Origin: a virus
Length of the DNA stretch: 64,000 nucleotides
IMG/VR virus record: IMGVR_UViG_3300032235_000623
Location: 1-64,000 of that record
Strand: one strand, 5' to 3'
Position 1 is the stretch's first letter; each line of letters starts with the position of its first letter. A program made the translations under genes and the position numbers. The notes under the pieces are model-generated. The model worked only from the letters and a program-made list of their open reading frames with translations. It made no database searches and was not told where the DNA came from. Positions 3,220-55,338 of the stretch are shown here, in pieces.

Positions 3220-4898
3220 CATACGCAGACAGAAATGAGTATGTTGGAGTTTCAGCAGACTTCAATTTAAAAATAGCTCCAACGGTTACTGATAATTTAG
3301 ATGGATCAGTACGTATATCTATAGATACGTCTTTTATGAATCAGGTTCCAGAGCTATATAGAATAGTTTATGTTTTAAAAGATGGTGCACCGAGTTCTTC
3401 AACTACAGTTACATCTACTTCAAGCTCTACAACTATATCTAATTTACAAAGAGGTAAAACTTATGTTTTTAAGATAAGGGCAGAAGACGGATCTTTGTAT
3501 GGTAACTACTATATTGTAGAAAAGTATATATCAAAAGACTCTAGTGTTGCAGGAGAGGCTACAAAGCAGCTAAGCGGATCTAGTCAAAGCAAGTCTTTAC
3601 TAGAGCTTACAAATAGCAAAGATAATTTTAAAAATAAAAAATGGTCTGTTGTTTATAAAAGTTTTGATAGTCTATCTGATGAGCCAGAAGGCAACACTGA
3701 AACATATTACTCTTATGGATCAGCGCTGTACATGGATTCCAATTTTGATAATCCAAATCAAAGCGCAGCAATTGGATTTTTTGTTTCAGACGGAGGACAA
3801 AAGGGTTACTACCTTTCTTTAGAAACCACCAGCCTAGCTGCATCTGCTAATAAAAAAGAATTAAGAATCATGAAAGCCACTGGTGGCGGTAATTTGGTTG
3901 CCATAAAGGATAGTCAGGTATCTATTGCAGAGAGTTTAAATGGTGTGTATGGCGGAAGAGAATATCTTGTAAATATTAAGGTTAGATTTAAAAGATCTAA
4001 TGGTGTTAAAACTGTATATATATATGGTTCTGTTAATGGATATAAGTTTTCTGCAACAGATACAGATTTTGAAGACGCAGAAGAAAAAATTAAAAATGTT
4101 GCGCTGACTCCAACTAAGCAGATAGCATTAGTATGTAAATCTGGAAAGGTTGCATTTGATTATGTTTATGCAACTGACATAAAGGATAAAAAAGAGTTTG
4201 ATAGGTTACAGTTAGTAGGCTCAATCCAGAATGGGATATTCAATAATGATTTCCTAGAGGCGGGATTTGGTAATTTAATATATAATCAAAATGTAGAAGA
4301 TGACTCTAAAATTATTCCTCCAAAAGCTATCGATGAGTTCGGTACAACTGTTAGAGAGATATATACAGCTAAATTAAAATTTGATTCAAGACCAGTATTC
4401 CCAATAAATATATCTACTGGCCTGAATTCTGGTGCCACATTAATAGGATCTAAGATGGGTAGCTTTGACGCAGAATTTTATTTATTAAATAACAGCTCAA
4501 CAACAATACCAGTAGATGGATCAAGCCTTTATATATATGGCAACACGCTTTCTGAGTCTGGACAGCTTGAGTATAAAACAAATGAGACTTCTGAGTATGT
4601 ATCAAAAGAGCCAGTAATATTTGAGACTAAGTGGATACAGAATTTAGAAGACGTTGAAAATTTAGCGAACTGGATTAAAGGTAAGGTTATAAATAAAGGT
4701 AAGCTAGTAGATATGGAAATTTTTGGTAACCCAGCTATTTCAGTCGGTGAAATTATTACCATTAAATATCCTTATGCTGCGTTAAGCGGAGATTCAGAAA
4801 AAGAAAGATTTATAGTAACTTCTGTAAAGCATGAGTATAGGGATGGAGGGTTGGTCACCAATATATCTGGTAGGAAGATTCACTTCTCTAACGTATAA
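3216..4898 (+). CDS. Minor tail protein with FN3-like domain
   Basis: TISNLQRGKTYVFKIRA FN3 signature; C-terminal GNPAISVGEIITI tail-hub motif; ATGA overlap with upstream gene. Confidence 0.6.
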   Translation: MTYADRNEYVGVSADFNLKIAPTVTDNLDGSVRISIDTSFMNQVPELYRIVYVLKDGAPSSSTTVTSTSSSTTISNLQRGKTYVFKIRAEDGSLYGNYYIVEKYISKDSSVAGEATKQLSGSSQSKSLLELTNSKDNFKNKKWSVVYKSFDSLSDEPEGNTETYYSYGSALYMDSNFDNPNQSAAIGFFVSDGGQKGYYLSLETTSLAASANKKELRIMKATGGGNLVAIKDSQVSIAESLNGVYGGREYLVNIKVRFKRSNGVKTVYIYGSVNGYKFSATDTDFEDAEEKIKNVALTPTKQIALVCKSGKVAFDYVYATDIKDKKEFDRLQLVGSIQNGIFNNDFLEAGFGNLIYNQNVEDDSKIIPPKAIDEFGTTVREIYTAKLKFDSRPVFPINISTGLNSGATLIGSKMGSFDAEFYLLNNSSTTIPVDGSSLYIYGNTLSESGQLEYKTNETSEYVSKEPVIFETKWIQNLEDVENLANWIKGKVINKGKLVDMEIFGNPAISVGEIITIKYPYAALSGDSEKERFIVTSVKHEYRDGGLVTNISGRKIHFSNV

Positions 4899-31271: not shown

Positions 31272-31519
31272 GTATATATCAAGATAAAGCAAAAGAGTGC
31301 AAATGCTGTGGAAAGCATGTGCCTCTTCCAACAGTTTTAAAAAGTTTTAATGGGATTACAGTTTGTCCAACAACCTTTGAAAATATTGTTGAGTATAAAA
31401 AGATATGGGATTCAATAGGTTCAAGACCGCCAGGTAGCATAAGAAAACATTTTTCTGAATATGTACAGCAAATTGTTGAGTCGATTGATACAGGAGGGGT
31501 AGAAGATGGCAGAATATGA
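31268..31519 (+). CDS. Hypothetical Cys-containing protein
   Basis: CKCCGKH...CP. Confidence 0.55.
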   Translation: MSIYQDKAKECKCCGKHVPLPTVLKSFNGITVCPTTFENIVEYKKIWDSIGSRPPGSIRKHFSEYVQQIVESIDTGGVEDGRI

Positions 31520-32543
31520 AATTAATGAAGAAGAAGTAAAAGAAGTAAGTGATCAATTTGATGAAACATTATTCCAGGCCATACTAGATAAATCCAGTAA
31601 CTCTAATTATGACTACAATGATGAAACTTTAAGATATATATATACAAACACTCTTGAAGAATCAGGTAAGAATACAAATACTCCATATGGCTTAGTTTAT
31701 GATTTTAATGAGAACGGATACAGATCAAATAGCTTTAAGGCTGGAACGGACATGCTCGTTACTGGTTGCTCATTTACCTTTGGATCTGGAATACCAACAG
31801 AATTACGTTGGGGTGACATACTATCAAAAAACTTAAATTTATCCTATTCCAATATGGCGATGCCTGGCAGTAGTGTAACTAGACAAGTTAGAGATATTTT
31901 TGCTTACTTTAAAGAATTTGGGCACCCAAAATATATATTTGCAATGTTTCCAGTTTTTAACAGAATGGAAATAATTTCAAACCCAAAGTATTTGATACCT
32001 GGTGCCTGGGAAAGATCTATAAAGAGAAAGAAAAAGTATAAAGCTTTAAGTACCGTGGATTTATATAGGCAAACATGTAATGTCAACATGGCACCTAGAG
32101 AACAAAAATTTTTAACTCAACCGTTAATCTTTGAGGATATCATGCCTTCAGAAATACCACAGTTCTATTCAAGCCTGCATGTATCAATGTTGCAACAGTA
32201 CTGCGACCTTGCTGGGATAAAGTTAATTTGGTCTACGTGGCATGATCCACAGAATAAAGTACTCAATTTAGTAAATCAAGAATATCCAGACACCTACAGG
32301 GGCATGGTAGACACTAATCCAGGTGGGTGGTCATTTAATAAAAAAACCAATGAGTCTGAATATAGAGAAAATAACGTTTTAATAAATTGTCATGAAGATT
32401 ACAAAATAATATCTGAAGACATGTTTCATACGGCAAGAGATATAGAATTTGGTATTGAGTGGGCACATTGGGGCACACATAGACATCTACATGTTGCTGA
32501 AGCATTCGAAAAATATTTTAAGGAAAACATACAAAATGATTAA
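31506..32543 (+). CDS. SGNH-like protein (paralog 1)
   Basis: Y.FNENGYRS, GCSFTFG, N.AMPGSS, C-terminal RD...HWG...H. Confidence 0.6.
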   Translation: MAEYEINEEEVKEVSDQFDETLFQAILDKSSNSNYDYNDETLRYIYTNTLEESGKNTNTPYGLVYDFNENGYRSNSFKAGTDMLVTGCSFTFGSGIPTELRWGDILSKNLNLSYSNMAMPGSSVTRQVRDIFAYFKEFGHPKYIFAMFPVFNRMEIISNPKYLIPGAWERSIKRKKKYKALSTVDLYRQTCNVNMAPREQKFLTQPLIFEDIMPSEIPQFYSSLHVSMLQQYCDLAGIKLIWSTWHDPQNKVLNLVNQEYPDTYRGMVDTNPGGWSFNKKTNESEYRENNVLINCHEDYKIISEDMFHTARDIEFGIEWAHWGTHRHLHVAEAFEKYFKENIQND

Positions 32544-32628
32544 AGATATACATAAATACATATATGTTTTTTATCAAAAGCTATTAAAGAAAAAAAGGGA
32601 TAAAAAGAAAACAGATTACACCTACTAG
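32536..32628 (+). CDS. Basic micro-peptide ending in DYTY (30 aa)
   Basis: MIKDIHKYIYVFYQKLLKKKRDKKKTDYTY; AAGGA RBS; paralog at 35241. Confidence 0.55.
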   Translation: MIKDIHKYIYVFYQKLLKKKRDKKKTDYTY

Positions 32629-32633
32629 TGCTA

Positions 32634-32662
32634 TTGACTATATTGTATGTTAATTATATACT
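32634..32662 (+). promoter_or_regulatory. Promoter for tRNA(CAT)
   Basis: TTGACT-N17-TATACT. Confidence 0.65.
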
Positions 32663-32673
32663 ATTGACTACTA

Positions 32674-32747
32674 GCACCAGTAGCTTAGTTGGTCAGAGCC
32701 CCGAACTCATAATTCGGTAGTCGTAGGTTCAAGTCCTACCTGGTGTA
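32674..32747 (+). tRNA. tRNA with CAT anticodon (elongator Met or Ile2)
   Basis: Cloverleaf GCACCAG/CTGGTGT, CCGAA-CTCATAA-TTCGG, GGTTCAAGTCC; lacks initiator GGG/CCC stem. Confidence 0.9.
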
Positions 32748-32760
32748 CAAGGGAGAATAT

Positions 32761-33078
32761 ATGGAAGAAGAAGAGTATATGGAAAAACTGAGGCACTATA
32801 TAGAAATAGGTGCTATCAGAGAAGCTGGCATTGATCAAAATGGAGAGATAATATTTGAGATTGATGAAGAGCATACTAAAGAGTTAGCCCCAGAATTATG
32901 GGAAGCTCATATGGAGTACGTAGATGAAGCCTTTCTTGATATGTATAAAGATGGTTTAGTGGATATAGAATATGATGAAGAGCTAAATGCTACTGTTCAC
33001 TTTACTAAAGAGGGTTACGAGTTAGCTGCAGAAAAGGGCTTGATTCCAATAAATATGGATGACATACCAAATAACTAA
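32761..33078 (+). CDS. Acidic hypothetical protein
   Basis: GGGAG RBS then ATG at 32761. Confidence 0.65.
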   Translation: MEEEEYMEKLRHYIEIGAIREAGIDQNGEIIFEIDEEHTKELAPELWEAHMEYVDEAFLDMYKDGLVDIEYDEELNATVHFTKEGYELAAEKGLIPINMDDIPNN

Positions 33079-33079
33079 A

Positions 33080-33478
33080 ATGAATTTTGATGATGAAGTT
33101 TTCCAAGAGCGTAGATTTTTATTTCAAAATATAGCCTCTGTTTTACCAGATAATCCTTGGGTTATTAAAGCTACTGAAAAAATGAAAACTTATTCAAAAG
33201 ATGAATATTCTATTATGCTAAAAGAAGCATATGAATTTCAAGATGTATTTGATAGAGCAGTTCAATTAAATATCTCTGCAAAAACAGAAGAAGCACATGA
33301 GCTTTTTGTTTTATTCATTAAGCATATAAGATGGTTTTTTGAAATAGATAAAGAGTCTTATGACGAGCTACTAGAGCTTTGTAGTCCAAATATGAATCAA
33401 TTTCTTATTGTAAATAAATCATACTCTGATTTATTATTTGATATACTTAATGAGTATAGACTGGAAGTAGGAGTTTAA
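33080..33478 (+). CDS. TipAS-like helical protein
   Basis: YSKDEY.....E.......A.......EEAHEL......I..FF pattern resembles the TipAS antibiotic-recognition domain. Confidence 0.4.
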   Translation: MNFDDEVFQERRFLFQNIASVLPDNPWVIKATEKMKTYSKDEYSIMLKEAYEFQDVFDRAVQLNISAKTEEAHELFVLFIKHIRWFFEIDKESYDELLELCSPNMNQFLIVNKSYSDLLFDILNEYRLEVGV

Positions 33479-34443
33479 TGAAGGCAATCGTAGTAAAATC
33501 ATTTGGCGGTCCAGAGGTTATGGAGTATGTCGATTATCGAGATCCAACACCTGTAAAAAATCAAGTTTTGGTAGATACAAGAATGATAGGCGTCAACTAT
33601 GCAGATACCTATCAAACAGAGAATAGCTATTTGGTACAGTCTTTGCCACCAGTCATCCCTGGCATAGAGGCATCATTTATGATAGATGGTGATTTATTTG
33701 TTGGGCACACTTCAAGCGGTGCATATGCAGAAAAAATTCTTGTTAATAGAGATAGAATGTTTAAGGTGCCAGATGGTGTCAGTGAGCAGGAAGCACTCTC
33801 TGTAGTATGTCAGGGAACTACTGCATATGGAATAGTAAATGATATATGCAATATTAAAGATGGAGATTTGGTTTTAGTAAATGGAGCTTCAAGTGCAGTT
33901 GGCATGATACTAATTCAGCTATGCAAACTTTATGGCGCTACAGTCATAGGTGTTACTGGAAGTGAAAAGAAGATAGATTTTGTAAAAGACTTAGGTGCTG
34001 ACTTCGTATGCATTGATAGCATGTCTGAAATAAAAAAAATTACTGATTCAATTGGGAAAAAGCCAAAATTTATTTTAGAGTCTTACGGCGGTAAGCATTT
34101 CATGCAATACTATAGCATGCTAGATACTGCTGGTCATATATGTTCGTACGGTGCATCCTCTAGAGAAGGCTTGCCACCAATGCATATACGTGATCTTTTA
34201 AAGGATACCAAGATAGTTTCTGGATTCTGGGGAACTAAAATTTTTGCAGACTCAGAAAAATTATCTACTGCGGTTAACGATTTGTTTGATTTGATTAAAA
34301 ATAAAAAAATAAAAATTGTTATTGGAGATACAATGTATCTAAGCAATGCAAAGGAAATGCATGAAAAAATTAGAAACAGAGATACAGTTGGAAAGCTTAT
34401 TTTAATAAACGATATGAATGAAGCTTTAAAAAATGAAGTTTAG
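33478..34443 (+). CDS. NADPH:quinone oxidoreductase (MDR / zeta-crystallin family)
   Basis: FGGPEV, GVNYAD, PGIE, GAYAE, GASSAVG, GK..L. Confidence 0.9.
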   Translation: MKAIVVKSFGGPEVMEYVDYRDPTPVKNQVLVDTRMIGVNYADTYQTENSYLVQSLPPVIPGIEASFMIDGDLFVGHTSSGAYAEKILVNRDRMFKVPDGVSEQEALSVVCQGTTAYGIVNDICNIKDGDLVLVNGASSAVGMILIQLCKLYGATVIGVTGSEKKIDFVKDLGADFVCIDSMSEIKKITDSIGKKPKFILESYGGKHFMQYYSMLDTAGHICSYGASSREGLPPMHIRDLLKDTKIVSGFWGTKIFADSEKLSTAVNDLFDLIKNKKIKIVIGDTMYLSNAKEMHEKIRNRDTVGKLILINDMNEALKNEV

Positions 34444-35272
34444 CATTAGTAGTAATTTTACTGAAAATAAATATTTTGGTATTTTAAATCCAAATACTGA
34501 AGATTTTCTGATGCCATACGAAAAAGATCTTGGAATTGATCCAGACCACAGCCTAGTTTATAGCTATAATAATTTTGGTTTCAGGTGTGAAGATTTTGTA
34601 AAAAATCATAATGGGTTACATATACTTTTTGCGGGATGCTCTGAGACAGAGGGCGCTGCAAATAAACTAGAGGATACTTGGTCGCATATTTTATATAGCA
34701 AGATAAAAAAATCTGAAGACATGTCTGGCTACTATAACGTAGGTAAAGCTGGACTTACTATATCTGCAATTGTAATGAATATATTTCAATACATAGATGA
34801 TTTTGGATTGCCCGATTGTATTTTTGTGCAGTTTCCAGATCAAACAAGATACGTAACCTGGTCCCAAGAGGATGGGTTTTATCCAAAGTATCAGGTTTTA
34901 GGAGATAATGTAAGTAATATAGAGTGGGATATATTTTTTACCAAACATGACGATCCAAAAGCACTAAATATAAATATACTTTATAATTACCTATTGTTAA
35001 AAAATTTAATTCAGTTTTGTAAAATAAATAATATAAGATTAATCTGGTCTAGCTGGCACCATCCAAGTATTGAAAAATTTAGTTCTGATACCAGTTTGCT
35101 TGATGGCTATATAAACACAAGTACGCTTAATAAAGAGCATTGGGATATTAAAATAAAGGACTTAAAAGCAAGAGATGGATATCATTTTGGGAGAGGCTTT
35201 CATAAAATATGGGCTGACCAGTTCTATAAGGAGTTTTTAAATGATAAAGATCATAAAAAGAATAATAGTTAA
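34433..35272 (+). CDS. SGNH-like protein (paralog 2)
   Basis: YSYNNFGFR, GCSETEG, NVGKAG, RDGYHFG...H. Confidence 0.65.
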   Translation: MKFSISSNFTENKYFGILNPNTEDFLMPYEKDLGIDPDHSLVYSYNNFGFRCEDFVKNHNGLHILFAGCSETEGAANKLEDTWSHILYSKIKKSEDMSGYYNVGKAGLTISAIVMNIFQYIDDFGLPDCIFVQFPDQTRYVTWSQEDGFYPKYQVLGDNVSNIEWDIFFTKHDDPKALNINILYNYLLLKNLIQFCKINNIRLIWSSWHHPSIEKFSSDTSLLDGYINTSTLNKEHWDIKIKDLKARDGYHFGRGFHKIWADQFYKEFLNDKDHKKNNS

Positions 35273-35318
35273 AAGAAAAATAAAACAAATGTTAAAGAAG
35301 AATAGGTATACCTACTAA
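35241..35318 (+). CDS. Basic micro-peptide ending in RYTY (25 aa)
   Basis: MIKIIKRIIVKRKIKQMLKKNRYTY; AAGGAG RBS; TAATG coupling to carbamoyltransferase. Confidence 0.6.
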   Translation: MIKIIKRIIVKRKIKQMLKKNRYTY

Positions 35319-36757
35319 TGATTATTTTAGGCATTAATGAAACATCACACGATGCATCAATATCCTTGATAAAGGATGGTGAGATACTATTTGCTGGACA
35401 TGCTGAAAGATACAGTAAAAAAAAGAATGACTGGTATAACAATAATGAAATTTATCTTGATATGCTTAATTATGGAACACCAACCCATATAGCATACTAT
35501 GAGCATCCAAGATTAAAACAATCAAGAATTATGTTGAGAGGCGGTGCTTCAGACTGGAAGCCAAGCATACCATTTGATCTACCAGTTAAATACTTTAGTC
35601 ACCACTATTCTCATGCATGTGCTGGATATTATACAAGTAAATTTAAAGATGCAGTAATTGTTGTTCTTGATGCAATAGGTGAATGGAATACATCAACAAT
35701 ATGGGTAGGCGAAGGCGAAGAAGTTAAATCGGTAAAGAAATTTAATTATCCAACAAGTTTTGGTTTATTCTATTCTGCATTTACTAAGCTACTTGGCTTA
35801 AAGCCAAATGAAGAAGAATATATAATGATGGGGATGGCTGGGTACGGTGATCCAGACAGATACTTTGATAAAGTTAATTCTTATTTTCCATCAATTAGAA
35901 AACAAAAATATAATTTTCATAAAGGAATAAATGACTGGGATATTGAGATAACAGATCAAAATAAATTTGATATTGCAGCAGCAGTACAAAAAGTATATGA
36001 GCATAGACTTTTAGAATTTATGGAGTATGCAAAGATACTTACGGGGAAAACAAATCTTGTATTTATGGGTGGATGTGCATTAAATTGTTCTGCTAACACC
36101 AAACTATGGGATTTGTTTAATAATATTTGGATTATGCCAAATCCAGGAGATGCGGGTAGCTCATTGGGTGCAGCAGCAGCCTTATACGGCTCTCATTTAA
36201 ATTGGGAAGGCCCATATCTAGGCACTAATTTGCAAAGTAATTGGCCTAGACACGAAATACTAAAAGAGCTAAAAGAAAATAAAATTGTAGCGGTTGCGTC
36301 TGGAAGGGCAGAGTACGGTCCAAGAGCACTTGGTAATAGAAGTATATTGGCAGATCCAAGAGATCCTAATATTAAAGATAAGGTAAATCAAATTAAACAA
36401 AGAGAAAAGTTTAGGCCATTTGCCCCAGTTGTTTTAGAGCATTTTGCAAATGAATGGTTTGACATGCCAACAAGATCAACACCATATATGCAATATGCAG
36501 TTAGGTGCAAATATCCAGAAAAAATACCTTCTGTCGTACATGTCGACGGAACTTCAAGAGTCCAGACTGTAAATGAATATGACCACCCAGAACTACACAT
36601 GCTTCTCAGGCAGTGGTATTGGGAAACAGGCGTACCTATTTTATTAAATACTAGCTTAAATATTAAGGGTCAGCCACTCCTTAATGATCAAAATGATATA
36701 ATTGAGTGGCAAAATAGATATAACACTAAAATATACGGAGGAAATAATGTTTTATGA
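35318..36757 (+). CDS. O-carbamoyltransferase (NodU/CmcH/TobZ family)
   Basis: HDAS, ERY, HHYSHA, DAIGE, MGMAGYG, GGCALNC, GDAG, EYGPRALGNRSILADP, RE.FRPFAP, HVDGTSR.Q, LNTSLN. Confidence 0.95.
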   Translation: MIILGINETSHDASISLIKDGEILFAGHAERYSKKKNDWYNNNEIYLDMLNYGTPTHIAYYEHPRLKQSRIMLRGGASDWKPSIPFDLPVKYFSHHYSHACAGYYTSKFKDAVIVVLDAIGEWNTSTIWVGEGEEVKSVKKFNYPTSFGLFYSAFTKLLGLKPNEEEYIMMGMAGYGDPDRYFDKVNSYFPSIRKQKYNFHKGINDWDIEITDQNKFDIAAAVQKVYEHRLLEFMEYAKILTGKTNLVFMGGCALNCSANTKLWDLFNNIWIMPNPGDAGSSLGAAAALYGSHLNWEGPYLGTNLQSNWPRHEILKELKENKIVAVASGRAEYGPRALGNRSILADPRDPNIKDKVNQIKQREKFRPFAPVVLEHFANEWFDMPTRSTPYMQYAVRCKYPEKIPSVVHVDGTSRVQTVNEYDHPELHMLLRQWYWETGVPILLNTSLNIKGQPLLNDQNDIIEWQNRYNTKIYGGNNVL

Positions 36758-37529
36758 CAACCCAAATGTAGAAAAAGTTGGACACAAAGTTTATGTATAC
36801 AGGAATTTTGTTTCTCCAGAAAAAATGGCAGAGATAAATAAAATTTTAAAAGACATAAATGTTGATGATTTAAGAGTAGATACTTCAGATCACACGATAG
36901 ACTGGTATTACGATAAGTTTACTCAGCCTATTCCAGCTTTGTATGACGTATGGAAGGATTTAAATGATCTACTTCTTCCAGAATACTGTATTCACCCATG
37001 CCTTACCCTACTTAGTACTAAAGAGGGAGAAGAAATGTACGCTCACTCAGATAGTCCAGGAGAAGATATGGAAGACGAGCTTATTGCTTCAGATGTATGG
37101 AACACTTGTTGTGTTATCCACTACGGCGCTATAGTTTATTTTGGAGAATTTGAAGGCGGAGAGGTATACTATCCAAACTTAGATGCAGATGGTAACTTTG
37201 TAGGAAATGAAGAACCATTAAAGGCTGGCAATGAATTTAGAGTAAAGCCTAATGCTGGAGACTTGATAATTCATGGAGCTCATAGCGATACATATCATGG
37301 AGTTAAGAAGATAACATCTGGCGTAAGATATGCTTTCTCAAACTTTGTTTTACCAGTTGAAAAGAATCCAGGAACATTCCCAGTATGTGGTACTCCAGAA
37401 AATGAAGAAAGATGGAATAAGGGTCATGCAGAATGGCTAACACCAATTAATTTTAAATGGCAGCCTTCTGAAAAACTACAAAATGAAATAGACGCTGGAG
37501 TTACTGGCGTAAGATATAGAGATATGTAG
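36747..37529 (+). CDS. 2OG-Fe(II) oxygenase, prolyl-4-hydroxylase-like
   Basis: HSD, FEGGE, P.AGD, HGV..ITSG.RY; GGAGG RBS before 36747. Confidence 0.85.
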   Translation: MFYDNPNVEKVGHKVYVYRNFVSPEKMAEINKILKDINVDDLRVDTSDHTIDWYYDKFTQPIPALYDVWKDLNDLLLPEYCIHPCLTLLSTKEGEEMYAHSDSPGEDMEDELIASDVWNTCCVIHYGAIVYFGEFEGGEVYYPNLDADGNFVGNEEPLKAGNEFRVKPNAGDLIIHGAHSDTYHGVKKITSGVRYAFSNFVLPVEKNPGTFPVCGTPENEERWNKGHAEWLTPINFKWQPSEKLQNEIDAGVTGVRYRDM

Positions 37530-50934: not shown

Positions 50935-51639
50935 TTGTACATAGTAACTGGATCAGGATCTGGCATAGGTAAATCAGTATATAAAACTTTAAAAGAAACT
51001 GATCCAGTTATTGGTATTGATATTTTGCAATCAGACATTGTTTGTGATCTATCTTACGAAAAAAATATAAAAGAATTAGTATCCGAAATAACAAATTCCA
51101 ATAAAGAAATAAGTGGTGTCATCACATGTGCTGGAGTTGTTGGTGGAGATAGTGTAATATCAACTAATTATTTTGGATCTATCAGACTTGTAGAATACTT
51201 ATATGCCCATTATGGCAAAATAAATGCAATACTAATTGGGTCTATTATATTTACACACACAAAAGTTAATAATGAGTTAATAGATTTATTGCTAGATGGT
51301 AGTGAATCAGATGCAATATATTTTGCAAGGAAGAATAATCTTACAGATACAGAGATATATGCATCCTGCAAGCTAGCCCTTAATTTTTGGGCAAGACGTT
51401 TTATTAAGAATAACCCAAACTCTAGAATAAACGTCATACATCCATCATTAACTAAAACTGGAATGACAGAAAAGTATTTAAAGAGTGAAGTTATAAAAAT
51501 TATTTTTGCTGAAGATATACATAAGGCATATTTGGGCGAGCCAGAAGAAGTATCTGGCTTAGTATGCTATCTAATAAAAAATTCAAAGTTTGTAAATGGA
51601 CAATCTATATTTATAGATGACGGTGTGTACAGTGTGTAA
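50935..51639 (+). CDS. Short-chain dehydrogenase/reductase
   Basis: VTGSGSGIG, CAG, YASCK, IN.I.P..T.T, F.NGQ.I..D.G. Confidence 0.88.
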   Translation: MYIVTGSGSGIGKSVYKTLKETDPVIGIDILQSDIVCDLSYEKNIKELVSEITNSNKEISGVITCAGVVGGDSVISTNYFGSIRLVEYLYAHYGKINAILIGSIIFTHTKVNNELIDLLLDGSESDAIYFARKNNLTDTEIYASCKLALNFWARRFIKNNPNSRINVIHPSLTKTGMTEKYLKSEVIKIIFAEDIHKAYLGEPEEVSGLVCYLIKNSKFVNGQSIFIDDGVYSV

Positions 51640-51721
51640 GACATGCGGAAACTGCTCTCAAGAGCACAATAAAACAATTGATGATGCAGTAGATAATATC
51701 TTAGATTCGAGTATAATATAA
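51632..51721 (+). CDS. Cys micro-protein (29 aa, GTG start)
   Basis: MCKTCGNCSQEH... Confidence 0.4.
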   Translation: MCKTCGNCSQEHNKTIDDAVDNILDSSII

Positions 51722-51723
51722 GA

Positions 51724-51957
51724 ATGAAAAGAAAGCTATTAGATGGGTCTGCGGTAGACTCTTTAGAAAGCCCTGTACAGTTAGTTATTCATACTAAGGC
51801 TCCACAAAAATGGAAGATAATAGATATGGAAACTGGCGAAGAGTACATTGGTTCAGAAATATCGCATCCAGTTTTTAGCAAAACATTAAAAAGTAAGGTT
51901 TTAGCTGGTCATATCGGATCGTGGAAAAAAATAAAATTTAGGAATAAAAATGAGTAA
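51724..51957 (+). CDS. Hypothetical protein
   Basis: RKLLDG...I.TK.P.KW...D.ETG..Y.G. Confidence 0.65.
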   Translation: MKRKLLDGSAVDSLESPVQLVIHTKAPQKWKIIDMETGEEYIGSEISHPVFSKTLKSKVLAGHIGSWKKIKFRNKNE

Positions 51958-52081
51958 ATATTCTATTAAAAAAGAACAAAAGTGCTACTACTGCACTGAG
52001 GAAGGTCTTTATTTTGACTATGCTGATTATAGATGTATAAGTGTTTGTAAAAATCATTTAAATATGGAAGCCTCAAGCTAA
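51950..52081 (+). CDS. Cys/Tyr-rich micro-protein (43 aa)
   Basis: CYYC...VCKNH; TAATG coupled to P450. Confidence 0.5.
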   Translation: MSKYSIKKEQKCYYCTEEGLYFDYADYRCISVCKNHLNMEASS

Positions 52082-53328
52082 TGTCAATTCAAAATAATTT
52101 AAAAAAAGCTGGTCCAGAATTTCTTTTAAATTTAAAAAAACAAAATGGTGAAGTATTTTGGATACAGGATTATTTATTTGCATTCAATGAAAACTACGTA
52201 AATGAAATTTATGTTAAGCAGTACAACAACTTTACAAAAGCTGGCGGATGGCATAAGATTAAAGAGGGAATAGGATCAGGGTTGCTCACTAGTGAAGAGC
52301 CAAAGCACCTAGTCAATAGAAGAATACTAAACCCTGCATTTCATGTGAATAAGATTAATAAGCATATTGATGAAATGCGTTCAATAATTTCAAAAGAATT
52401 AAGTAATTTACAAAGTCAGAGTGAATTTAATATATCAGATTATTTTTTAAACTTGAGCTATATAGTATTAACTAATACCTTATTTAATGATAAAAACCTA
52501 TCTGAATCAAAAGAATTTAAAGATATATTTTATTCAATTATGAAGAAAACTGTTGATGACGAAGATCCGCACCATGAATCTTTGGAAGAGTATAGGAGCA
52601 GTTTATATAATTTAATATCAAAAGTAGTTTTGGATAGAGTCTCTAACGAAGAACATAATGATGACTTCCTAGACCTATTAATTGAATCATTCAATGATGG
52701 CGAGATGTCATTGCATGAAATAGTGGATGAGATACTCAGTATGCTACTTGCTGGACATGAAACAACGGCTAACGTCGTATCATGGGCAATATGTCATGTG
52801 TCATTAAATCAGGAAATAAAGAATAATATAAAAATAGAATCAGACTTATTTATAAATAAAATAAATACCAATGGAGTTCTTGATTCTTTAAAGGATTTAA
52901 CAAATTCAGAATATGCTATAAAGGAAACATTAAGACTCTATCCTCCAGTCTGGTCTAGCCCAAGGGAGGCAATTAGTGATTGCTATATAGAGGACACCTT
53001 CATTCCAAAGGGAACAAAAATTATATTAAGCTCATATGTTTCCCATAGAGATGAAAAGTATTTTGATGATCCAGAATTATTTATGCCAGATAGATGGGAT
53101 AATAATTTTGAGGACACCCTACCTCAAGGCTCATACTTTCCATTCCATCTTGGTCCAAGAAAGTGTATCGGATATCGTTTTGGAGAAATACAGGCAAAAA
53201 TTACATTACTAGAATTTTTTAAAAACTTTGAGATTGATTTATTGAACGGAATGCCTAAAGGTGTGCCATATGCAACATATAGAATATCTGAAAATTTCTG
53301 TGTTGAATTAAGAAAGAGTGATCAGTGA
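52081..53328 (+). CDS. Cytochrome P450
   Basis: RR...PAF, LAGHETTA I-helix, ETLRLYPP, F.PDRW, PFHLGPRKCIG heme Cys. Confidence 0.95.
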   Translation: MSIQNNLKKAGPEFLLNLKKQNGEVFWIQDYLFAFNENYVNEIYVKQYNNFTKAGGWHKIKEGIGSGLLTSEEPKHLVNRRILNPAFHVNKINKHIDEMRSIISKELSNLQSQSEFNISDYFLNLSYIVLTNTLFNDKNLSESKEFKDIFYSIMKKTVDDEDPHHESLEEYRSSLYNLISKVVLDRVSNEEHNDDFLDLLIESFNDGEMSLHEIVDEILSMLLAGHETTANVVSWAICHVSLNQEIKNNIKIESDLFINKINTNGVLDSLKDLTNSEYAIKETLRLYPPVWSSPREAISDCYIEDTFIPKGTKIILSSYVSHRDEKYFDDPELFMPDRWDNNFEDTLPQGSYFPFHLGPRKCIGYRFGEIQAKITLLEFFKNFEIDLLNGMPKGVPYATYRISENFCVELRKSDQ

Positions 53329-54113
53329 AGATTCATTACATGACAGACTCAGGAAACGATCTATCTGAGCTATCAAATATCCTAGATGATGCAGGCTACT
53401 ACTCTCTCCTTCTGGTATATCATTCAACAAAACCAGATGCCTGGATTAAATGTGCTAATGCTTTAAATAAAAAACATAAGTTTAAGTACATGATAGCCAT
53501 GAGGCCGTATGCAATTAGCCCAGAGTACTTTTCTATGATGTGCAACGCATTTAATGAGCTGTCTCCAAACAGGATAATGTTTAACATAGTAGCTGGAGAC
53601 TTACATAAAGAAGAGAAAAGCGTAGAGCATGCTTTATTTATCGGCGACCTTATAGAAACATCAGAAAAGAGAGTAAAGTATACTGCTGAATGGATAAAGA
53701 AATTAAAAGAAATTAATAAGATAAGGCCATTCCCAGAGATAGTAATGTCTGGGTTTTCTGATAAAACATTAGAAACTGCTGCAGAGTTTGCGGACTATAA
53801 TTTATGTATGATTGATACATACAAAGAGCATACAGATAGATTTAATAAAAATAAAAATAGAATGGTTTCTGCTCAGATTATAATAAGGGATACGTATGAG
53901 GAAGCAAAAGAGTTTGCTGATAAATATGTGCCAGAAGAGCACAAAAGAAGGTGGACAATTTTTGGAACAGAGTCTGACATTATTAATGAGTTTGAATATC
54001 TTGAGTCTATTGGGGTCACAGACATAATGCTTAGATCGCATAATTCAGATTTAAAGGTTAATTTAACTCACAATTTTGTAAAAAAATATAACTCAAGAGA
54101 AATGGTACAATAA
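53325..54113 (+). CDS. Luciferase-like (LLM) flavin monooxygenase
   Basis: D..GY.S.L, K..IA.RP...SP, R...NIVAG, G.S, GT...I. Confidence 0.8.
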   Translation: MKIHYMTDSGNDLSELSNILDDAGYYSLLLVYHSTKPDAWIKCANALNKKHKFKYMIAMRPYAISPEYFSMMCNAFNELSPNRIMFNIVAGDLHKEEKSVEHALFIGDLIETSEKRVKYTAEWIKKLKEINKIRPFPEIVMSGFSDKTLETAAEFADYNLCMIDTYKEHTDRFNKNKNRMVSAQIIIRDTYEEAKEFADKYVPEEHKRRWTIFGTESDIINEFEYLESIGVTDIMLRSHNSDLKVNLTHNFVKKYNSREMVQ

Positions 54114-54116
54114 GAT

Positions 54117-54797
54117 ATGACTAAAATTTATGCAATAGGTGACTGCCACCTATCAAGAGTGCAGGAACATTATAATCCAAGCGAAAGCGATGTGGATTTT
54201 GTTATATGGGGCAAGGCTGCGAAGAAGATATGGGACATTAATTTTGCAGAGATGCTGACGCTGGACGAGGTATCCTCTGGTAAAGAGCAGCAAAGATTTG
54301 ATGGAGACGGTGTAACGCTATTTAGCCAAATTAAAGATGAAGATATATTGTTCGCATGGTTTGGATATGTTGATATTAGAACATTTTTATCTAAATATAA
54401 CAATGCTGATGAGGTTGCTAAAAGGTATGTAGATCAGCTTAAATCTTATTTTAAAAATTCTTTAATTGTTATTATAGAGCCTCTACCTCAGTTTACTGAA
54501 ATGTTATTAAAGTACGAAGGTATTAGTCCATCATATACATATGAAGAAAGATTGAACCAAAATAAACTCTTTATAGAGTCTTTGCACAAATATGCATCAG
54601 ATGCAGGAATTACACATTTTATAACTCAAGACGATATAAAAAAGGCCATAGGAAGCGATGAGTTAACGCCTGCTATGACTCACACAAAAGCCCCTCACCC
54701 AGTTGATGGCTTGAAGGACGAATATAACCAAAATATATTTTTCTTGTTTGAAAGATATGCCAAAAAAATTATAGAGGAGAACTTTAATGACAACTAA
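54117..54797 (+). CDS. SGNH-fold-like protein (GDCH variant)
   Basis: AIGDCH, WFGYVDIR. Confidence 0.45.
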   Translation: MTKIYAIGDCHLSRVQEHYNPSESDVDFVIWGKAAKKIWDINFAEMLTLDEVSSGKEQQRFDGDGVTLFSQIKDEDILFAWFGYVDIRTFLSKYNNADEVAKRYVDQLKSYFKNSLIVIIEPLPQFTEMLLKYEGISPSYTYEERLNQNKLFIESLHKYASDAGITHFITQDDIKKAIGSDELTPAMTHTKAPHPVDGLKDEYNQNIFFLFERYAKKIIEENFNDN

Positions 54798-55338
54798 CCA
54801 CGAAATGGTAACAGATAAAATTGTACAGTTTAATGATGTATTTGAGGACTTGGATGCTGTAGTTTCCAAGGTAGAGTCTGGATCCTGGGAGCACTGGGGT
54901 AGAGCAAATAATGAACGTGTTGGAACATTAAGATGGATCTATAAGATAGAAGGCTATCTTTATAATGAAATTAATTCAGCTGTTACAAAAGCAGCAGACG
55001 AATATTTTGAGAACCAATCTATTAAAAAGAATGAGTATATGTTTTCGAACAGCTCATATCATATTAGAAAATGGGATGCACCAATGAGAGGCATGGAGCC
55101 TCATTCAGACTTTTCAGCAAATGAGGATGGAAGCAGAAGCAACCCCTCATACACCATATGTGGTTATATCACAGAGGATTACGAGGGCGGGCACCTAGAA
55201 TTTCCTAAGCACAACATATCTATTAAGCCAAAAGCTGGATCTATTATAATATTTCCATCTGATGAATGGCACGGAGTTTCTGATGTAATAAGCGGAAATA
55301 GAATGATGTTTAGCTTATTTATACATAAAACCCATTGA
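54787..55338 (+). CDS. 2OG-Fe(II) oxygenase, prolyl-4-hydroxylase-like
   Basis: HSD, DYEGG.L.F, KPKAG...FP, HGV..V.SG.R. Confidence 0.85.
   Translation: MTTNHEMVTDKIVQFNDVFEDLDAVVSKVESGSWEHWGRANNERVGTLRWIYKIEGYLYNEINSAVTKAADEYFENQSIKKNEYMFSNSSYHIRKWDAPMRGMEPHSDFSANEDGSRSNPSYTICGYITEDYEGGHLEFPKHNISIKPKAGSIIIFPSDEWHGVSDVISGNRMMFSLFIHKTH

Follow-up and report, generated by a model that had tools for sequence, protein, structure and literature searches.

Conserved tyrosine-tailed micropeptides paired with SGNH-like proteins in viruses: a possible crocagin-like peptide-tailoring module

The DNA analyzed here, referred to as the window, is a 64,000-nucleotide stretch comprising positions 1 to 64,000 of the IMG/VR virus record IMGVR_UViG_3300032235_000623. 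The full record is 108,849 bp long, with an estimated completeness of 91%, and encodes a large terminase, a DNA polymerase, a DnaB-like helicase, a UvsX-like recombinase, tail proteins, Hsp20 and eight tRNAs. Directly 3′ of the terminase gene lies a region in which two genes for SGNH-like proteins with a Gly-Cys-Ser (GCS) motif, SGNH1 and SGNH2, are each followed by a tiny open reading frame (ORF) for a basic micropeptide, u1 and u2 (Table 1). The second pair leads into genes for an O-carbamoyltransferase and a 2-oxoglutarate (2OG)-Fe(II) oxygenase. An earlier reading of the same DNA, made from the letters alone (hereafter the sequence-only reading), had described the pairing of an SGNH-like gene containing GCSxTxG ... 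(D)xxH with a tiny basic ORF ending in YTY as occurring twice. Both loci, their ribosome-binding sites and the TAATG coupling were found.

Table 1. Genes of the SGNH/micropeptide region, with window coordinates.
Feature	Position	Strand	Identifying features
SGNH1, GCS-motif SGNH-fold protein (predicted), 345 aa	31506-32543	+	GCSFTFG plus D312...H321
u1, 30-aa Lys-rich micropeptide MIKDIHKY...KKKTDYTY, ends D-Y-T-Y-stop	32536-32628	+	+1 frame
MDR, Qor-type NADPH:quinone oxidoreductase	33478-34443	+	Pfam ADH_zinc_N 6e-20; PDB quinone oxidoreductases 1e-29
SGNH2, GCS-motif SGNH-fold protein (predicted), 279 aa	34433-35272	+	GCSETEG plus D248-G-Y-H251
u2, 25-aa Lys/Arg-rich micropeptide MIKIIKRIIVKRKIKQMLKKNRYTY, ends R-Y-T-Y-stop	35241-35318	+	+1 frame
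CT, NodU/TobZ-family O-carbamoyltransferase, 479 aa	35318-36757	+	Pfam Carbam_trans_N + Carbam_trans_C (E 1e-54, 7e-41)
OXY, prolyl 4-hydroxylase (P4H)-like 2OG-Fe(II) oxygenase, probable ATG 36747	36702-37529	+	PHROG 61 2e-5; Pfam 2OG-FeII_Oxy_3 0.004; PF13640 at 37128-37346

Both micropeptide genes are closely packed against the gene upstream. An 8-nt overlap joins u1 to SGNH1, with AAGGA 12-16 nt upstream of u1. For u2, the overlap with SGNH2 is 32 nt, GGAG is found 8-11 nt upstream, and the stop overlaps the start of the carbamoyltransferase gene (TAATG). The oxygenase gene in turn overlaps the 3′ end of the carbamoyltransferase gene. SGNH2, u2, CT and OXY form an operon of overlapping genes, and this order is kept in the related loci L008-L011, L016, L084, L088 and L091. 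SGNH1 and SGNH2 are paralogs (27% identity, E 8e-16). Orthologs of u1 lie 3′ of SGNH1 orthologs in L084, L088 and L091, with the pattern ...DIHKY[IV]YV...D-Y-[TV]-Y. In the 108.8-kb genome, u1 and u2 are the only ORFs of their type; a looser rule adds one weak 18-aa candidate. The carbamoyltransferase had been described as complete, and it matches both Pfam halves, PHROG 1601 (1e-107) and, among PDB sequences, NovN (5e-60), GdmN (2e-54) and TobZ (1e-43). The oxygenase has a paralog at 71252-71845 (E 2e-17) and no relative among PDB sequences. Judged by these matches, the family assignments of both enzymes hold.

The SGNH-like family extends well beyond this genome. Homologs of SGNH2 are common in viral and metagenome contigs, forming 35 protein clusters, with more than 490 confirmed stretches in IMG/VR alone. 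The family is restricted to viruses: its sole cellular homologue, among 185,579 species genomes, is on one short contig of a metagenome-assembled genome, and its Atlas neighbors are viral. No near-identical DNA was found in the phage collection, and a tblastn search with SGNH2 gave no match in 50,697 phage records. The survey that follows draws on about 160 fetched related loci, which are phylogenetically related to one another.

In these loci, 68 of 144 unique SGNH-like genes have directly 3′ of them an ATG-started, Lys/Arg-rich ORF that ends in [FYW]-x-Y-stop and measures 18-34 aa once trimmed to its likely start. With GTG, TTG and further start codons admitted, the count becomes 76 of 141 unique SGNH-like genes with a peptide ORF, here of 22-35 aa, at their 3′ end, in keeping with the expectation of the sequence-only reading that the micro-ORFs would be conserved beside SGNH genes. 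Counts restricted to ATG underestimate the peptide family, because some orthologous frames that have lost an ATG stay open and keep the tail. Frames of this kind, with ATT, TTG or GTG at the start, occur in L014 (~4791-4868), in L023/L027/L028 (~2010-2103) and in L088 (~4796-4874). The pairing of SGNH-like gene and micropeptide is far beyond chance: among the unique small ORFs of the related loci, 71 of 3480 on the plus strand and 3 of 3977 on the minus strand conform to the pattern.

The micro-ORFs are conserved coding genes under selection as peptides. Among 12 distinct u2 orthologs, 44.5% of single-base codon differences are synonymous in the u2 frame, versus 11.6% and 14.3% in the other two frames, and u2 orthologs are 64-88% identical where the SGNH2 orthologs are 43-80% identical. 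The commonest tail is FIY (31), followed by YIY (20), YTY (8), YVY (4), YNY (3), WIY (1) and YLY (1). Synonymous codons are found at every tail position (last Tyr: TAC 33, TAT 35; Ile: ATA 27, ATT 19, ATC 6) and the tail may be followed by any of the three stop codons. This identifies the peptide, and not a DNA motif, as the conserved object, and rules out the YTY end as a DNA motif. Motifs resembling Shine-Dalgarno (SD) sequences precede 37 of 60 peptides, as compared to 18% of control positions. The peptide ORF overlaps the SGNH 3′ end in 48 of 60 cases, at 18 different offsets. In the SGNH2 model, the tail region encoded across u2 is disordered (predicted local distance difference test score, pLDDT, under 50), and orthologs in which u2 is intact have this tail truncated. 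Taken in aggregate, the sequence data are best explained if u1 and u2 are translated microproteins, each working with the SGNH-fold enzyme encoded just upstream. The finding adds several hundred microprotein genes that were formerly unannotated.

The same data bear on a purely regulatory role, in which the micro-ORFs would be arrest or leader peptides, coupling devices for the downstream gene, or frameshifted extensions of the SGNH protein. A conserved C-terminal motif at the stop is typical of arrest peptides, and the Lys-rich, A-rich tracts and the TAATG junction with the carbamoyltransferase gene would suit such a function. Against this, the gene 3′ of the peptide varies; it can encode a carbamoyltransferase, a trypsin-like peptidase, a tRNA, a methylase or a further SGNH protein, and in some cases it lies on the opposite strand. 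This variation rules out a leader peptide for the downstream gene. The 18 start offsets fall in all frames relative to the SGNH stop, some starts lie beyond that stop, and the peptides have SD motifs of their own, which rules out a frameshifted C-terminal extension. Finally, the motif can be trailed by K or EE. A regulatory role is accordingly judged highly improbable.

The micropeptides are short and strongly basic, with a median net charge of +11 (57 unique peptides of 18-34 aa) and an aromatic-x-Tyr tail. In 49 aligned peptides, the terminal Tyr is the sole invariant column. Their longest apolar run is at most 7 residues, and none contains a transmembrane (TM) helix. The signal for an amphipathic helix does not rise above that of shuffled controls, and an amphipathic helix was rejected as the peptide role on this ground. 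Searches of Pfam, PHROG and NCBIfam with the micropeptides and the SGNH-like proteins returned nothing useful, and neither SGNH1 nor SGNH2 matches Pfam.

Linkage of the peptides to SGNH-like genes is obligate. Wherever gene order was mapped, the peptide gene is directly 3′ of an SGNH-like gene and never occurs alone; no natural fusion of an SGNH protein and a peptide was found. On the SGNH tree, the presence of the peptide is structured by clade (19 changes, versus 46.8 when shuffled). Other neighbors were counted for the 32 unique peptide genes that are flanked by 3 kb or more on either side. A carbamoyltransferase gene adjoins 13 of these and lies within 3 kb of 18, whereas a P4H-like oxygenase gene lies within 3 kb of 22. 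The sequence-only reading had looked to both neighbors, SGNH-like and carbamoyltransferase genes, as partners of the micro-ORFs; the association with SGNH-like genes is complete, and that with the carbamoyltransferase falls to 13 of 32 when adjacency is considered. Viewed from 35 unique carbamoyltransferase genes, the upstream neighbor is an SGNH gene plus peptide in 20, with overlapping stop and start, and an SGNH gene alone in 6. An SGNH gene follows the carbamoyltransferase in 12 of the 35, 6 of which also have one upstream, and no SGNH gene is adjacent in 3. Phage records with FIY-type peptides that lack an adjacent carbamoyltransferase gene still encode one 11-17 kb away, and a carbamoyltransferase is present in each checked relative genome that has the peptide.

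Further genes recur in the same islands. These include a GT60 'GlcNAc' (N-acetylglucosamine) transferase and genes of adenylyl-sulfate (APS)-kinase/cytidylyltransferase-like, weakly sulfotransferase-like, JmjC/cupin and WhiB type (L043, L061, L155, L014, L046 and others). Methylase genes are also found in related loci. Some SGNH/peptide/carbamoyltransferase islands abut lysis genes of CHAP, trypsin-like, endolysin or holin-like type.

Structural models give a clearer picture of the partner protein. AlphaFold2 (AF2) models of SGNH2 (pLDDT 85.6, predicted template modeling score 0.88) and SGNH1 (pLDDT 76.2), together with Foldseek searches in which the top matches of SGNH2 are all SGNH/GDSL proteins, show that both GCS proteins are predicted to adopt the α/β/α SGNH fold. 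On two points at which the sequence-only reading could have failed, then, the micro-ORFs proved to be conserved and coding, and the GCS proteins to be SGNH-fold in their models and structural matches. In a structural search of all against representatives, the top match of SGNH2 (VIA) is CgnD (8a2n), with Z 15.5 over 215 residues versus 12.8 for the next. The top match of SGNH1 is again CgnD (8a2n; Z 15.8 over 223 residues), followed by GDSL esterases at 13.7 or below. The match to CgnD exceeds those to the next SGNH proteins by Z ~2-2.7 and by 30-60 aligned residues, and takes in an N-terminal extension absent from ordinary esterases. In these searches PatB is placed 14th and 26th, and both PatB and OatA fall well below CgnD and generic esterases.

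The residues expected of an SGNH hydrolase are retained. In alignment A1, G68, S70, G107, D248 and H251 of SGNH2 are invariant, with one homologue having Asp at position 69; in alignment A2, G87-C88-S89, D312 and H321 of SGNH1 are invariant. Across 137 aligned family members, the Ser is present in 136 and the Cys in all 137, D248 and H251 are near-invariant, and G107 is mostly kept. G-C-S, the Asp, the His and an Arg are essentially invariant whether or not a peptide is present, and in SGNH2 the Asp and His take the D-x-x-H form. The SGNH superfamily blocks are recognizable as the Ser nucleophile, the block II Gly and the block V D-x-x-H, while the block I Asp is replaced by Cys. This invariant Cys beside the nucleophilic Ser corresponds to Cys69 in SGNH2 and Cys88 in SGNH1; one database homologue has G-D-S. 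One possibility would be that the Cys of G-C-S serves as a second nucleophile, or that the chemistry is Cys-based. Of 140 SGNH-like proteins, 137 have no TM-like or signal-like segment and 139 have no hydrophobic N-terminus. From these sequence features, the whole module is predicted to be soluble and cytoplasmic.

The nearest structure, CgnD, belongs to the crocagin pathway of Chondromyces crocatus. The crocagin precursor CgnA has 21 aa: a leader of positive charge and, at the C-terminus, the three-residue core Ile-Tyr-Trp, whose aromatics are conserved (PMC10070186). CgnD is an SGNH/GDSL-type hydrolase with the triad Ser79/Asp325/His328 that cuts the core from the leader intracellularly (PMC10070186; PMC10885120). 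The 2OG dioxygenase CgnC hydroxylates the core and CgnI carbamoylates the product; crocagin-related clusters have a glycosyltransferase in place of the carbamoyltransferase (PMC10070186; PMC10885120).

Several features of the phage locus parallel this arrangement. The phage peptides, at 25-35 aa against 21 aa for CgnA, would likewise be very short precursors with a basic leader and a three-residue aromatic C-terminal core. The phage cluster also contains an SGNH-fold protein with Ser/Asp/His residues, for which CgnD is the top structural match in both paralogs, and it combines a 2OG oxygenase with a TobZ/NodU-type carbamoyltransferase, the latter resembling CgnI at the family level only. In both cases all components are soluble and intracellular. 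We tentatively favor a crocagin-like pathway, with a probability of roughly 40%, in which the micropeptide is a precursor or scaffold whose C-terminal tripeptide is tailored by enzymes of neighboring genes and released by the SGNH enzyme. If so, the reaction likely involves: a ribosomal peptide in which a Lys/Arg-rich 'leader' presents the C-terminal aromatic tripeptide [F/Y]-x-Tyr as its working end; hydroxylation of the tripeptide by the 2OG-Fe(II) oxygenase; O-carbamoylation of a hydroxyl on the tripeptide by the NodU/TobZ-type carbamoyltransferase; and severing of the tailored tripeptide from the leader by the Ser-Asp-His triad of the GCS-SGNH enzyme, as in CgnD. The oxygenase and carbamoyltransferase are the tailoring enzymes proposed for the window; in relatives, glycosyl-, sulfo- or methyltransferase-like genes or a cytochrome P450 may supply further ones. 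Four points of this scheme are our inference: the role of the peptide as substrate, the identity of the modified residue, the peptidase activity of the SGNH protein and the release of a small molecule.

The two systems also differ. The phage core is [F/Y]-x-Y and the crocagin core is x-Y-W, which makes a pyrroloindoline product impossible for the phage peptides. The active-site block of the phage protein is G-C-S with an invariant Cys. The phage peptide gene does not lead the operon but lies 3′ of the hydrolase gene, loci contain several hydrolase paralogs each, and the system is encoded by viruses only. The window operon has no counterpart of the N-methyltransferase.

Other observations weigh against the crocagin-like pathway. 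A family profile compared with PDB sequences shows no link to CgnD or to any other chain, such that the likeness to CgnD is at the level of fold only. No homologue of CgnB/CgnE, the class-defining peptide-binding proteins, was found in sequence searches of p111 and p139, which were run against PDB chains only. Because these genomes have 3-8 P4H-like paralogs scattered over them, adjacency of the oxygenase is weak evidence. The position of the peptide gene, downstream of and coupled to an enzyme gene, suggests near-stoichiometric expression, which would fit a substrate but equally a subunit or cofactor. Each locus contains 2-4 SGNH-like paralogs with intact catalytic residues, many without a peptide of their own, which is unusual for a leader peptidase, and in several relatives the module is beside lysis genes. 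The case for the pathway is drawn from sequence and predicted folds.

If the crocagin-like pathway is correct, many freshwater and marine phages, together with a cultured Ralstonia jumbo phage described below, would encode a pathway for ribosomal-peptide modification, and a small tyrosine-derived product would be made during infection. A virus-encoded pathway resembling those for peptides that are made on ribosomes and modified after translation (RiPPs), directed to a tailored Tyr tripeptide, would be new for viruses; a literature search found no publication on phage crocagin-like or virus-encoded RiPP systems. It would also give a testable function to a virus-only family of 'hypothetical' GCS-SGNH proteins, and a possible rationale for the recurrence of carbamoyltransferases and 2OG oxygenases in aquatic phages.

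The coupling of peptide gene to enzyme gene and the repertoire of the islands bring in a second explanation. Here, the micropeptide would be a stoichiometric partner or cofactor of an SGNH esterase or transferase, and not its substrate, within a Nod-factor-like toolkit for the decoration of virion or host-envelope glycans or glycoproteins. The toolkit would comprise the SGNH-like paralogs, carbamoyltransferase, GT60, sulfotransferase/APS kinase and oxygenases. The peptide, its Tyr tail docked to the enzyme, could serve as an activator, could plug the active site, or could be a polycationic tether to an acidic surface or nucleic acid. Translational coupling of the peptide gene 3′ of the enzyme gene is consistent with this, as is a distinct peptide type for each of the two paralogs. 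Most SGNH enzymes act on acylated sugars, GT60, APS-kinase, sulfotransferase-like and carbamoyltransferase genes recur together, the median charge of the peptides is high, and endolysin or holin-like genes abut some loci. However, a partner role leaves unexplained why a C-terminal Tyr, set in an aromatic-x-Tyr motif, is the sole invariant residue and why the nearest structure is a peptide hydrolase. The amphipathic signal of the peptides does not exceed that of shuffled sequences. This explanation is judged unlikely, though second in probability to the crocagin-like pathway.

The sequence-only reading had proposed a carbamoyl relay, passing from carbamoyltransferase to peptide Tyr to SGNH Ser to an acceptor glycan. 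In a more general form, the carbamoyltransferase or another donor would load the terminal Tyr of a soluble micropeptide, and the SGNH Ser or adjacent Cys would relay the group to a glycan or protein acceptor. The F/Y-x-Y tail corresponds to the opening three residues of the acyl-shuttle motif FxYxxF, which in PatA reads FIYANF (PMC12148441). In this respect the FIY tail resembles the start of that motif, and the pairing with an SGNH-fold enzyme resembles DltX/PatA and DltD/PatB, in which an aromatic-x-Tyr microprotein (DltX) or tail works with such an enzyme. The SGNH partner keeps Ser/Asp/His, 20 of 35 carbamoyltransferase genes come directly after an SGNH gene plus peptide, their start overlapping the preceding stop, and all checked peptide-bearing relatives encode a carbamoyltransferase. 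These parts of the proposal, the conserved SGNH-linked micro-ORFs and the FIY half-motif, stand; motif and adjacency make up its positive support, with nothing beyond them.

The remainder of the relay is difficult to reconcile with the locus. Known Tyr shuttles carry acyl groups from a membrane-bound O-acyltransferase (MBOAT) across the membrane to an extracytoplasmic SGNH transferase. In contrast to these MBOAT-dependent, transmembrane, extracytoplasmic systems, the phage module has no membrane to cross: its peptides have no TM helix and its SGNH proteins no signal peptide. There is no MBOAT (PF03062) or AT3 (PF01757) gene in the 91%-complete genome, although a host enzyme is possible. The xxF half of the motif is absent, as the Tyr is C-terminal or is followed by K or EE. 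The carbamoyltransferase gene is not adjacent in 19 of the 32 well-flanked cases (that is, it is adjacent in ~40%), and some carbamoyltransferase-SGNH pairs have no peptide. PatB and OatA rank far below CgnD, the nearest structure, and below generic esterases. Moreover, NodU/TobZ-family enzymes such as NovN, GdmN and TobZ carbamoylate their final acceptors directly, and carbamoyl-Ser enzymes are normally dead-end adducts; both count against a shuttle, which we regard as improbable. If it were true, it would represent a membrane-independent group-transfer relay, for which there is no known precedent in viruses or otherwise. Whatever the mechanism, the pairing of an SGNH protein with a micropeptide whose terminal Tyr is invariant widens the Tyr/SGNH theme past cell-envelope acylation.

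A further alternative confines the carbamoyltransferase to phage DNA, where it would convert 5-hydroxymethylcytosine (5hmC) to 5-carbamoyloxymethylcytosine, leaving the SGNH/peptide pairs as unrelated neighbors. There is precedent in a phage TobZ-like enzyme that carbamoylates 5hmC in DNA and dCTP and co-occurs with a thymidylate-synthase-like hydroxymethylase (MetaGPA study, PMC8670742). Both systems have a phage TobZ-like enzyme, but the neighborhood here differs in its SGNH-like genes and micropeptides. An SGNH-like gene is beside 32 of 35 carbamoyltransferase genes, often with overlapping frames. No thymidylate-synthase-like hydroxymethylase (PF00303) was found in the 91%-complete genome, in a search that did not extend to ThyX-type enzymes. 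The sequence-only reading had offered DNA modification as its own alternative; the missing hydroxymethylase makes it weak, and we give it very little credence.

Among known small-precursor systems, the micropeptides also resemble cittilin. The 27-aa precursor CitA ends in Pro-YIYY (P|YIYY core), and many phage peptides end in P-x-x-[FY]-I-Y or P-[FY]-I-Y. In cittilin and biarylitides, a P450 cross-links the Tyr-x-Tyr/His core of a short precursor. The phage P450 differs in being distant from the peptide genes, and F-I-Y peptides occur in genomes without a P450. In the window, the P450 gene is at 52081-53328 (within 50935-55338), 17 kb from the peptide genes. Among ten genomes, a P450 is found in 6 of 7 with Y-x-Y peptides and 0 of 3 with F-I-Y peptides, a small sample that is confounded by shared ancestry.

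Two distant loci have a similar composition. The Ralstonia jumbo phage RsoM2USA encodes three GCS paralogs, a radical-SAM protein and a carbamoyltransferase 45% identical to that of the window, and an unannotated 36-aa ORF ending ...RKQDPFIYK lies between two 'hypothetical' GCS paralogs (L001 4038-4148; record ~125,891-126,001). As a cultured phage, RsoM2USA is a lab-tractable example. In a marine virus, a micro-ORF ending ...DPYIYEE accompanies two GCS paralogs, together with genes for a carbamoyltransferase and a radical-SAM protein. These two are the most distant of the loci in which a P-[FY]-I-Y micro-ORF is retained, and both have a radical-SAM gene. By profile comparison, the GCS proteins of RsoM2USA and the marine virus show only a weak relationship to the window family (hhalign probability 66% and 21%), and the two loci are treated as remote or analogous.

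Other genes of the region are less readily placed. The MDR gene is immediately upstream of SGNH2 and overlaps its start, and the order 'MDR SGNH u CT' is syntenic in 27 loci; gene position alone would suggest a part for the MDR protein in the module. P4H-like 2OG-Fe(II) oxygenase paralogs number eight in this genome, at 37128, 55093, 70952, 86564, 88690, 89294, 90073 and 90869. Five of the eight are within 86.5-91.1 kb, and related phages carry 3-8. A tRNA-Met gene (32674-32748) is located 46 nt 3′ of u1 and overlaps the listed GTG start of an acidic 111-aa ORF (32743-33078). The likelier start of this ORF is ATG 32761, which is preceded by GGAGA, and the acidic protein family is present in 58 related loci.

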